Source of the DNA: a virus
Lineage: Duplodnaviria; Heunggongvirae; Uroviricota; Caudoviricetes
Direction: 5' to 3' (one strand)
Virus record (IMG/VR): IMGVR_UViG_2684623171_000005
Length of the DNA stretch: 64,000 nt
In this document: positions 3,001 to 6,000 of the stretch, piece after piece
How positions within the stretch are numbered: position 1 is the first letter of the stretch
Layout: each line of letters starts with the position of its first letter
Made by a program: the position numbers

Positions 3001-6000
3001 GGGTCCATCTCCATCTCTTGTCCTATTGCCATTCTTGCGTCAGTGTCGTCAGTGTCGTCAGCGGCGAAGCATAAAACAGCCCACGCACCCATTGTTTTAA
3101 AAAGAACTGCAATTGGCTGTGGTTTTACTGAATTTGCGTTAGCGCGAAAATCACAAATCGCACTTTCATGAAATTCCATATATCACCTCAAATAAGTGGT
3201 TTGCTGCCTAATTTCATTTTCTGGCGACCAACACAAGTCATCTTGCTGTCAGTTGTTTGGATTTACGGTAGCCTGCCGCGTAAAGAGCTACATTTGGAAG
3301 ACAAGTTGAGCCTTCATATTTTCTGGTCAACGTTGTCAGTGTTATTACTTCTGCTCTCATTGCTGGTTTGCGTTTGCATTGTAAGACCACTCGTGATGGG
3401 GTTGGCCTGTGTAGTTTGTCGGAGCTAATCGCCTCCTGACTTTGCAGGTTTGCGCGACGAGCTCTACGGCGAGAAGCTGCGGTGCCTTTAAATTCTGTTT
3501 TTCTGGACATAGATTCCTCCCGAATAAACTTTGGCGATGCAATCTCGAAGCTCCTCCTGAGACGGTTGCTTCGGCATTGCATCCCACAGCTTATGTGGTT
3601 GGGTGATCTGGCTTTTCAGCCACGTAGTCGAGAGTCGACGTTGTTTAAAGAGCCTGCCAGTCTGTTCCATTTGGCTTCCAGCGTCCTGCTGATGGTTAAA
3701 TAGTACGATATGTACTTCACTTGGTCAATACAATTTGTTCTAAAACGGGGCGTTTTTTTACAACGCTTTGTATTTAATAGTATTGTTTTTTAGCGTGGGT
3801 GTATTGCCTCGGCGATGTAAGGAGAGATCAGAATTGCGTTGTTTAGTGAGTTGTATCTATTTATTTTCCAATAAATACAATTGGTTATGTGTTTTTTTGG
3901 GCGAGAGGAAAAGAAAACCCGGCATGGAGGCCGGGTTGATGATTAGCGGTGTGGCCTTGAGCGATAATGCTCACACACATGTTCAAGATTTCCATGCCTT
4001 ATCCGTTCATAGGCATTCACATGAACTTCTCGATCGAATTGGTCATTCAAATTGTATGTAGACATCTGTGTTTTCTCATATTGGCGGCAGCCCTACAACC
4101 GCTTGAAAAAATGTACCAGACGCGCTAAGGTTACATCGCAAATATTGTGTACCTTAACAAGGGCTCCTTTTGGAGGCTCTGGTTAAACAGCATCAATGTC
4201 GGACTGGGGAGTTGGACATTGTGCTGAATGCTTTTGCATTATTGAGGCCGAACGTAAACCTTCAGAATTGAAGAGATGCGTTCGGCTTCTTCGTTTGTGA
4301 TATCGTTAGGAATGCCTTTAATCGTTACTGTAACCCCTGATTCAGGTCGAAGAACTACTGGAAGATCATAGGTATGAAGTGCATTAGCCTTGCCTTCGAC
4401 TTTTGTTGGTTCGCCAGTCAAATCTTTTTCCTCACTGGATTCTTTGTCAATCGGAGTGTATGGGATTTCTTCACCAGACTGGAAAGCTACAAACTTTTTG
4501 ATTGCACTTTCCATGCGGCTTTTATATGCAGTAATGCTGCTGTCGCTAGGCTTCGGCTCAGTTGCGTTGATGTATCGCTCGGCAAGCTCATTCACATCAA
4601 GCTGAGTAACATCACCCATTTCCTCTTCTTGGACTACCGTTAAGAGGCGAGCGGATGAGTTTTTTAAATTTCGAGCGGTGGCCTCCTTCATTATGTTCAG
4701 CGACATAAGCTCTTCAAGGAAGTCCTTGAATGCCTGCACGCTAACGTTTGACTTTGCCATTTGCTCTCTCTCTAAGTTATTGACTCAGATCGAGTTTATC
4801 CAGGAATTGATTTGCATGCAAGACTCAAGTCTTGAGAATTTCCGTTCAAGATCCACTCTCAATAAAAAAGGCCGCACCTCTGCGACCTTTCATCTCCTAA
4901 ATCTCTTTTCTCTTACCTAAAGAAACAGCAGGCTGGGTCAGCCCTAACAACTTCAAGTGCATCGGTCAGAGAAAGCTCCGTGCTATACAGGTGTTATTTC
5001 ATATCTTTTTGCATCCAATAAATTTTCCATCTGTCCAGAGAGCGGATGCACTTGATTCTTGTTGATGGCAGGACGTTTTTTCACCTGCCTCACCCTGCCA
5101 TACAGGACGCTGCTCACCGATATCTATCGTCCGGTCATTGATGTTATAGACAATATCCAGATCATTACGGATATACTCAGATGGCCTTATGCTTTCAATG
5201 AATAGATGAACTTCTTTTTGACCGCTTGATACTCATGGCCATTAAACTCCATCTATCCTCTTTACCCAAACGTCTCTTCAGGCCATTGGCTGGCGATAAC
5301 TTTCCCCACAACGGAACAACTCTCATTGCATGGGATCATTGGATATTGCGGGTTTAGTGGTTGTAGAAACACCTGACCGCTATCCCTGATCAGTTTCTTG
5401 AAGGTAAATTCATCACCACCAAGTCTGGCTATGCAGAAATCGCCGGGCTCAACAGCTTGCTCAGGGTCAACCAGAATTAACATCCCGTCAGGAAAACTAG
5501 GTTTGGAACCTGTTGGTGCGGTCATTGAGTTACCTTCAACCTCAAGCCAGAATGCAGAGTCACTGGCTTTTTTGGTTGTGCTTACCAATCTCTCCGCATC
5601 ACCTTTGGTAAAGGTTCTGAGTTCTGGAGAGAACATCCCAGCCTGAACATGAGAAAAAACAGGGTACTCATATTGTTTTTTAACTGGGGCCGATGAGTAT
5701 TCGCCAACAGGTGAAAATGTCCCGTCGTGGTTGAATGATATGTTATCAATACCAAGGTATTTAAACACCACACCAATATCACTAAGAGATGGATGACGAG
5801 ATCCGCGCAACCAGTGTCCAATTCCACCCTGCGTCATACCTAGCTCTTCGGCTAACTTCTCTTGAGTTATGCCGAGCTCTTTCATTCTGGATCTAGCCAG
5901 TTCATACCATTTCATTTTCATGTCCTTATTATTACGCTCTGTACTGGAACCATCCATGCACAATGTGTATTTTTACTTGTATTTGAGAAGTACATATTGT

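Follow-up and report, generated by a model that had tools for sequence, protein, structure and literature searches.

The immunity region of a lambdoid prophage, contained in the 64,000-nucleotide viral record IMGVR_UViG_2684623171_000005 (the window, here always the whole stretch), carries between cI and pL a compact cassette built around ECs1184, a 173-residue protein. We find this cassette to be a mobile, insulated unit of two genes, bounded by conserved terminators and provided with its own promoter, in which ECs1184 is followed by a structured RNA and by a second, tiny gene. The predicted structure of ECs1184 combines the core-binding domain of tyrosine recombinases, here standing alone, with a small beta-hairpin-helix domain at the C-terminus. 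The reading that we favour, held with somewhat less than even confidence, is that the cassette is a two-gene moron in which ECs1184 acts as a FliZ-like autorepressor throttling a harmful downstream output.

An insulated unit that moves between prophages

The features of the cassette and its neighbours are collected in Table 1. An earlier reading of this DNA, made from its letters alone (the sequence-only reading), had placed the unit in the rex slot of the immunity region, between cI and OL/pL, and had set it off by a minus-strand hairpin and T-run terminator on either flank; it was right on both counts. Both terminators fold well. The upstream one forms a GGUCGCA/UGCGGCC stem followed by U6AUU (ΔG -15.9 kcal/mol, z -3.1), and the downstream one has its stem at 3916-3937 and a U-tract extending to about 3906 (ΔG -14.3 kcal/mol, z -3.9); the latter carries in AP000422 the annotation 'terminator for pRM transcript'. 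The upstream sequence AGGTCGCAGAGrTGCGGCC-T6 is kept in Proteus, Serratia and Salmonella, and also in loci whose protein is 33% identical, and an equivalent of the downstream terminator stands 3' of the small open reading frame (ORF) in two related loci (L003 and L072).

Table 1. Coordinates of the cassette, its parts and its neighbours in the window
Feature	Position	Strand	Remarks
cI	5262..5915	-	right-hand neighbour of the cassette, followed by cro and cII
DUF3024 pseudogene	4919..5232	-	between cI and the upstream terminator; outside the cassette
Upstream intrinsic terminator	4861..4887	-	ends the cI (and DUF3024 remnant) transcript; 5' boundary of the cassette
Second inverted repeat, TCTTGA-N10-TCAAGA	4830..4851	.	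promoter-proximal arm overlaps the 16-bp palindrome
7-2-7 palindrome, CAAGACT-CA-AGTCTTG	4819..4834	.	overlaps the -35 element; candidate operator
Sigma70-like promoter, TTGCAT-17-TAAACT	4793..4821	-	predicted start near 4786
H0093 / ECs1184	4239..4760	-	173 aa; first gene of the cassette
Structured spacer RNA / small-ORF leader	4066..4238	-	helices at about 4071-4226
EcOnc20 peak	about 3972..4103	-	position inferred by coordinate conversion
H0092	3943..4065	-	40-aa His/Cys-rich small ORF; second gene of the cassette; phrog_21154, E 5e-8
Downstream intrinsic terminator	3906..3937	-	marks the 3' limit of the cassette; pL follows after about 190 nt
OL/pL	about 3700-3776		left-hand neighbour of the cassette, followed by nutL and N

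The sigma70-like promoter that had been proposed for the gene is a weak match to the consensus and is backed by its conservation in relatives. Its position, spacing and sequence are kept where the proteins are 35-83% identical, the variants across lineages being TTGCAT, TTGCGT, TTGCAA or TTGCTA, a spacer of 17 bp, and TAAACT or TAGAAT. Indeed, the -35 and -10 elements at this spacing, the 5' untranslated region TCGATCTGAGTCAAyAACTTAGAGAGA and the upstream terminator recur together in Salmonella, Proteus and Pseudescherichia loci whose protein is 73-83% identical, and much more distant loci have an equivalent arrangement of promoter, 5' untranslated region and terminator.

The promoters are also rich in GATC (Dam) sites. 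Across 20 lineages, the 110 nucleotides upstream of the gene hold 36 such sites against 7.1 expected, an enrichment of about five-fold, and 19 of the 20 have at least one (promoters of the L003-L066 set). In the window they lie at 4788-4791, directly after the -10 element, and at 4853-4856; in other clades they fall within the -35 element or the inverted repeats. Such an enrichment may point to expression that responds to methylation or replication.

The cassette occurs in lambdoid prophages with at least four different repressors, and in these it is invariably placed between N and cI, the latter with or without DUF3024. In the Pseudescherichia vulneris prophage L072, by contrast, the whole terminator-to-terminator unit follows a Q-like antiterminator gene and precedes the lysis genes. 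The same upstream terminator is there followed by a promoter whose repeat reads GAGACT-A-AGTCTT, a gene for a protein with 83% identity to ECs1184, the spacer RNA, a 41-aa ORF and a terminator. In a further prophage type (L042) the cassette follows a replication module. The presence of a complete unit in another slot indicates mobility as a moron, with the two flanking terminators as its limits. The cassette thus has the marks of such elements: its own promoter and terminators with the insulation that they give, presence or absence between otherwise adjacent genes, and alternative slots. The sequence-only reading had taken it for an autonomously expressed, insulated moron, a view borne out by the conserved terminators, promoter and 5' untranslated region, by the alternative slot in Pseudescherichia and by a published minus-strand Hfq signal downstream of the ORF (see below). 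Its architecture therefore stands as described; its content, given as one gene plus non-coding RNA, does not, since we find two genes and a structured RNA.

Within E. coli the cassette is rare and nearly clonal, being present in 234 of 5426 complete genomes, nearly always with at least 99% identity, and a scan of species-representative genomes returned one locus only. A comparison of the divergent genes upstream of two distant family members showed them to be unrelated.

A structured RNA and a second gene downstream of ECs1184

The cassette had been described as a single gene followed, between its stop codon and the terminator, by about 300 nucleotides of apparently non-coding RNA. That stretch holds instead a structured, covarying spacer RNA and a conserved ORF, H0092, with a coding pattern of substitution. 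H0092 is absent from the current RefSeq annotation and has homologs in Pseudescherichia, Salmonella phage Oslo and SH2026Stx1. Between the window and L072 it shows 18 synonymous and 6 non-synonymous codon differences, with 7, 4 and 22 changes at the first, second and third codon positions. A small ORF begins 150-175 nucleotides past the stop codon in every related locus with enough sequence, and is of one of three types: a 57-aa basic type A (phrog_33859), a 47-aa Cys-rich type B, and type C, to which H0092 belongs. Type A ORFs together show 1616 synonymous against 427 non-synonymous codon differences. The synonymous excess in types A and C implies that the small ORFs are genes and, judged by its substitutions, H0092 is under purifying selection. 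None of the small ORFs matched a toxin model of Pfam, NCBIfam or PADLOC.

The spacer RNA of the window has a minimum free energy of -54.4 kcal/mol (z -3.6), and in its last hairpin a U-run base-pairs with the Shine-Dalgarno region (GAGAAAA) of H0092. For the six sequences of the window type, the 49 pairs of the consensus structure are 94.5% paired, as against 30-52% in slid controls, with compensatory changes at 8 pairs as against 0-2. The 19 sequences of type A behave likewise (93.3% paired versus 33-47%; 11 compensatory pairs versus 0-4). Rfam holds no family for the spacer and 3' region of the window, the only match being GadY, whose 20 bits (E 0.93) fall short of the gathering score of 45, and an Rfam search of five related loci gave nothing relevant. 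A covariance model of the type A RNA (R1) recovered the Serratia type B loci at E 1e-19 and gave only 2.8 bits to the window, at 4091-4159, a negative outcome for the idea that the window RNA is a homolog of the type A RNA. Since the model is blind to the window copy, the two RNA types are to be seen as positional and architectural equivalents rather than as demonstrated homologs. The apex of the first hairpin of the window RNA (4199-4214, minus strand) is an exact inversion relative to L030, L037 and Oslo, CCAACTCCCCAGTCCG versus CAGACTGGGGAGTTGG; the flip keeps the stem and turns the loop from CCCC to GGGG.

One natural disruption bears on the relation between the two genes. On pNJS001-2, a 439-kb plasmid of E. 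coli NJS001, a prophage-like immunity region carries the cassette (L076, locus 1244-2458) with an IS3-family element that interrupts the spacer RNA near window position 4102 and splits the small ORF from an intact ECs1184 homolog. The main gene is therefore viable without coupled expression of the small ORF, and the insertion is compatible with the small gene being a dispensable or a harmful partner.

ECs1184 pairs a core-binding fold with a C-terminal beta-hairpin-helix domain

The product of the main gene had been characterised from its sequence as acidic and non-membrane, and so it is (pI 4.85; no hydrophobic segment, the maximum Kyte-Doolittle 19-residue mean being 0.72). The sequence-only reading could not place it in any family, a point that we revise. 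ECs1184 matches PHROG 2602 at E 3.5e-102, and a profile search of 1.84 billion representatives recovered 653 clusters at E<=1e-3; among the best 150 of these the proteins are 110-238 aa long, mostly 160-200 aa, and nearly all match the full length of the profile. Close homologs, at 41-99% identity, are present in E. coli, Cronobacter, Salmonella, Yersinia, Proteus, Providencia, Morganella and Serratia. The 173-aa sequence had no significant match in Pfam, NCBIfam, PADLOC or the PDB, and a Foldseek search of the PDB with the structural model returned nothing at E<0.1.

With a diverse alignment, AlphaFold models ECs1184 at a predicted local distance difference test score (pLDDT) of 88. Residues 8-94 form four helices in the core-binding (SAM-like) fold of tyrosine recombinases, residues 102-129 an acidic disordered linker, and residues 130-170 a beta-hairpin and helix with a pLDDT of about 95. 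A conserved motif, S..T..YKSR..SA...F, and weak matches to PF02899 (Phage_int_SAM_1) agree with the core-binding fold. For PF02899, ECs1184 scores 14.4 bits (E 0.047), below the gathering threshold of 22.3 bits, and E<=0.01 is reached by only two of 33 family members, the best at 3.6e-4. The catalytic domain PF00589, with its R-K-H-R-H/W-Y active site, is matched by none of the 33. Lacking this domain, in a chain that ends at residue 173, ECs1184 is not a recombinase and cannot recombine DNA. Its link to recombinases is one of fold only, and no confident homology to a characterised phage protein was found, a test that the sequence-only reading had itself put forward.

Residues 128-168 match phrog_36396, a group of 63-aa phage proteins, at E 1.9e-5, a sign that the C-terminal beta-hairpin-helix may occur on its own as well.

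Repeats at the promoter

The palindrome CAAGACTCAAGTCTTG lies, perfect over 16 bp, exactly where the sequence-only reading had put it, and is the sole copy in the 64-kb window. It is unchanged in L030 and is replaced by 6-1-6 variants in L029, L072 and L003. In other clades different repeats, inverted or direct, occupy the corresponding place at the promoter, and operator-like repeats are found there in every clade. A 7-2-7 palindrome within 1 kb is not improbable by chance, and its support lies in conservation, not in statistics. Inverted repeats overlap the -35 element in all clades, which is indirect evidence for a promoter-binding repressor of the FliZ kind. A regulon search across the window found no further copy of the palindrome and no paired half-site. 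As an operator for cI the palindrome was rejected, because the OL and OR operators annotated in AP000422 are different sequences (AGTAC..GTACT and TACAA..TTGTA).

The second inverted repeat is retained, with an N9 spacer, in the Salmonella-type locus L030, and its TCAAGA/TCTTGA arms recur in the L061-63 clade. A k-mer search over all promoters brought up AAATCAA and TCAAGA-like half-sites that are suggestive yet near the shuffled maximum, and the second repeat is without statistical support. The distant homologs (L061-L063 and L042-L059) have long inverted repeats at or upstream of their promoters that resemble recombinase core sites, with arms of 12-13 nucleotides placed 13-15 nucleotides apart, as in TTCAAGATCTGA..TCAGATCTTGAA and GGATTCATCGATC..GATCGATGAATCC.

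Published experiments on the region

In a systematic deletion of Sp5 genes in a K-12 host, Mondal et al. 2016 (PMC5155283) obtained no in-frame deletion of ORF23 (ECs1184) or of ORF21 (ECs1180), the only two early-region Sp5 genes reported as non-deletable, and its authors inferred a role for ECs1184 in stable lysogeny. Such a result is unexpected for a freely dispensable accessory gene; once present, the cassette appears not to be dispensable.

With regard to RNA, a 2025 study of the Sakai RNA interactome by TRAPP (PMC7618764) recovered ECs1184 at a false discovery rate (FDR) of 0.065, whereas the tagged, plasmid-expressed protein crosslinked RNA no better than green fluorescent protein (GFP) in a polynucleotide kinase (PNK) assay. 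Tree et al. 2014 list in their Table S2 an orphan peak of Hfq cross-linking and analysis of cDNA (Hfq-CRAC), the candidate small RNA (sRNA) EcOnc20, which in the old Sakai numbering lies at 1255628-1255753 of Sp5, minus strand. We converted this position with an offset of +136..142 taken from AsxR and stx2B, spacing within Sp5 being equal between the records, which places the peak to within about 10 nucleotides either way. So mapped, EcOnc20 spans the last hairpin of the leader, the Shine-Dalgarno region and two-thirds of H0092, counted from its start, and may be the leader of the H0092 mRNA rather than an independent sRNA. Transcription of the cassette itself is supported by this peak alone, which indicates that in uninduced Sakai the minus strand is transcribed 3' of the ECs1184 ORF. 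In the literature we found neither Northern confirmation nor further characterisation of EcOnc20, and no work on ECs1181, ECs1185 or ECs1186.

The prophage around the cassette

The window is a lambdoid Shiga toxin (Stx) prophage of the VT2-Sakai (Sp5) type. Its positions 3700-5270 match, at 100% identity, the immunity regions of VT2-Sakai (Sp5), the Morioka Stx1 and Stx2 phages, Nil2, 2851, 1717 and many PA phages. The main gene is entered as H0093 (ORF b63) in the phage records and as ECs1184 in the Sakai chromosome, with the label 'hypothetical' throughout. Between cI and the upstream terminator, 370 nucleotides are the remains of a DUF3024 gene broken by a frameshift and an in-frame stop: a tblastn search with the intact Proteus protein matched it in two frames (E 4e-7 and 7e-7), with an internal stop. 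An intact DUF3024 gene occupies the equivalent place in Proteus prophages and in phage SH2026Stx1.

The replication module (6866-9057, plus strand) encodes a 273-aa O-like protein and a 457-aa DnaB-type helicase, whereas O and P of Sakai Sp5 measure 899 and 1437 nucleotides; the window is therefore a mosaic relative with an Sp5 immunity region and not Sp5 itself. A homolog of ECs1180 (ORF21), an 86-aa acidic protein without family match, lies at 2919-3179 on the minus strand, just downstream of N, and is not found together with the cassette in other phages.

Discussion

Our favoured reading sees in the cassette a self-throttling moron. The order of its parts is promoter and operator repeats, ECs1184, about 170 nucleotides of structured RNA, the 40-aa His/Cys-rich ORF and the terminator, and transcription would start from its own sigma70 promoter, independently of cI and pL. 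ECs1184, as a FliZ-like sequence-specific DNA-binding repressor, would bind the inverted repeats over its own -35 element and keep the promoter throttled, while the structured leader, probably together with Hfq, would be a second gate on translation of the small protein. Loss of ECs1184 would derepress the promoter, leading to overproduction of the RNA and the small protein, to read-through past the single terminator into the co-directional pL operon (N, kil) some 190 nucleotides downstream, or to both. Either outcome could explain, we propose, why ECs1184 cannot be deleted from a lysogen.

Several points weigh against this reading. The presumed recognition helix, TARNLKNS, hardly changes from clade to clade while the repeats vary in both sequence and geometry, which is not what a simple helix-operator code predicts, and a pI of 4.85 sits uneasily with a proposed DNA binder. 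The promoter agrees with the consensus at seven of 12 positions and was missed by a consensus scan. Distant family members reside in ordinary chromosomal islands and have no visible small ORF, so that the core function of the family need not involve the small gene. Finally, the failure to delete ECs1184 was reported without follow-up and could have technical causes.

It is also conceivable, though we think it unlikely, that the cassette exemplifies an undescribed class of prophage addiction or defence module. Such a class would combine a catalytically dead recombinase remnant in the role of a core-binding-domain repressor, a conserved, Hfq-binding structured RNA and an interchangeable tiny effector of zinc type; it would be widespread (at least 653 clusters), possibly Dam-sensitive, and would lock Stx prophages in their hosts.

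The relation between the two genes can also be read as toxin-antitoxin-like addiction or abortive infection, with ECs1184 as an acidic, DNA-binding, autoregulating antidote and the small protein or the RNA as a toxic partner, set free once ECs1184 is lost or broken down, for instance during infection. The reported non-deletability (PMC5155283) is what an antidote would show, and an acidic upstream gene is followed by a small basic or neutral one behind a candidate palindromic operator, in a slot typical of prophage defence genes. The pair also moves together, and the IS3 insertion uncouples the small ORF while leaving the main gene intact. Against this, a structured spacer of 173 nucleotides stands where type II systems have tight gene coupling, and the small ORFs match no toxin family; neither of the two hallmarks of a type II system, a known toxin family and tight coupling, is thus seen. 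Three types of small ORF have been swapped while the C-terminal domain of the main protein stayed almost identical, which speaks against a specific interface between an antidote and a toxin protein. PADLOC yielded no match, and distant family members do without a visible small ORF. We therefore regard this explanation as doubtful. A ToxIN-like type III system was rejected outright, since the RNA has no repeats, the fold of the protein does not fit and the genes stand in the opposite order.

Superinfection exclusion, the view taken by the sequence-only reading, would make of ECs1184, the small protein or both a weapon against incoming phages, in the manner of rexAB, nun and sieB. The place of the cassette in the rex/nun slot, its autonomous expression behind a terminator, its patchy distribution and its mobility among prophages would all suit such a role, and GATC-rich promoters could sense the state of DNA methylation or replication. 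Yet there is no homology to known defence proteins: PADLOC-DB 2.0 has no model for ECs1184, and among 33 family members it gave three single-member matches at chance level (E 0.003-0.01). Moreover, rex, nun and sieB differ from ECs1184 in not being reported as non-deletable, and the family has members outside prophages too. This role for the cassette seems to us quite unlikely.

That ECs1184 is a second repressor for the maintenance of lysogeny was inferred by the authors of PMC5155283. It would silence another phage promoter, for instance that of an antirepressor or a lethal early gene, and would for this reason be essential in the lysogen. The DNA-binding type of fold and the presence of an antirepressor gene in Sp5 speak for it. 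Within the 64-kb window, however, neither the palindrome nor paired half-sites are found elsewhere; the cassette is found alongside several immunity types that are unrelated to one another and in prophages of other architecture; members of the family sit in non-phage islands; and most lambdoid phages manage without the cassette. We consider this improbable.

Least probable of all, in our estimation, is that the RNA is the product, with the structured EcOnc20 region serving as an Hfq-dependent sRNA or sponge and ECs1184 as its RNA-binding partner: the structure is supported by covariation, the Hfq-CRAC peak maps to it and ECs1184 was nearly significant in the RNA interactome (FDR 0.065), but the PNK signal did not exceed that of the GFP control, the fold of ECs1184 is of the DNA-binding kind, EcOnc20 lacks Northern blot confirmation, and an RNA directly 5' of a conserved coding ORF whose Shine-Dalgarno sequence it sequesters fits a leader.

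The autorepressor reading takes its model from FliZ of E. coli and Salmonella, a stand-alone integrase core-binding-domain repressor acting on promoter elements (PMC3367168) and the sole characterised stand-alone protein with this domain that we found. Both are proteins of about 180 aa around a core-binding (SAM-like) domain, with no catalytic domain. The likeness is nevertheless one of kind and not of family. In an hhalign comparison the core-binding regions are in register (family residues 12-95 against FliZ 90-164) at a non-significant E of 0.077, and FliZ scores 55 bits on PF02899 against 14 bits for ECs1184. The domain order is reversed, the core-binding domain being C-terminal in FliZ and, in ECs1184, N-terminal and followed by the beta-hairpin-helix. 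The fliZ gene, furthermore, belongs to the chromosomal flagellar regulon, whereas ECs1184 is encoded by a prophage cassette that also holds an RNA and a small ORF. Other relatives in fold are more remote. The core-binding domains of lambda Int, XerC/D, IntI4 and Cre are 7-16% identical in sequence to ECs1184, which has neither a catalytic nor an arm-binding domain. The master repressors MrpR (SPbeta) and SroF (phi3T) of Bacillus phages are full-length, recombinase-like proteins of about 320 aa; ECs1184 retains the core-binding domain only and has a canonical cI next door.

As an accessory element, the cassette shares its slot, the strand of cI and expression in the lysogen with lambda rexAB, HK022 nun and other genes between cI and pL. 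It is set apart from rexAB, which is co-transcribed with cI from pRM, by a conserved terminator and its own promoter, and rexAB and nun are dispensable and have no similarity in sequence or fold to ECs1184, reported as non-deletable. Like the lambdoid morons (Juhala et al. 2000, cited in Tree et al. 2014), it is extra DNA flanked by promoter and terminator between genes that are adjacent in related phages, occurs in alternative slots and is expressed from the prophage. Beyond a typical moron, it has a candidate regulator and operator of its own, a structured RNA and a second tiny gene, and is apparently not dispensable.

ECs1184, previously without a domain assignment, can now be seen as a recombinase core-binding-domain protein in a mobile and, as we propose, self-regulated cassette, and its unexplained non-deletability can be framed as hypotheses of autorepression, toxic output and read-through into pL. 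Sp5 is a clinically important Stx2 prophage. Should the cassette prove to stabilise Stx prophages or to exclude phages, this would bear on the persistence and spread of Shiga-toxin phages, and would define a function for a large protein family that lies outside the coverage of Pfam.

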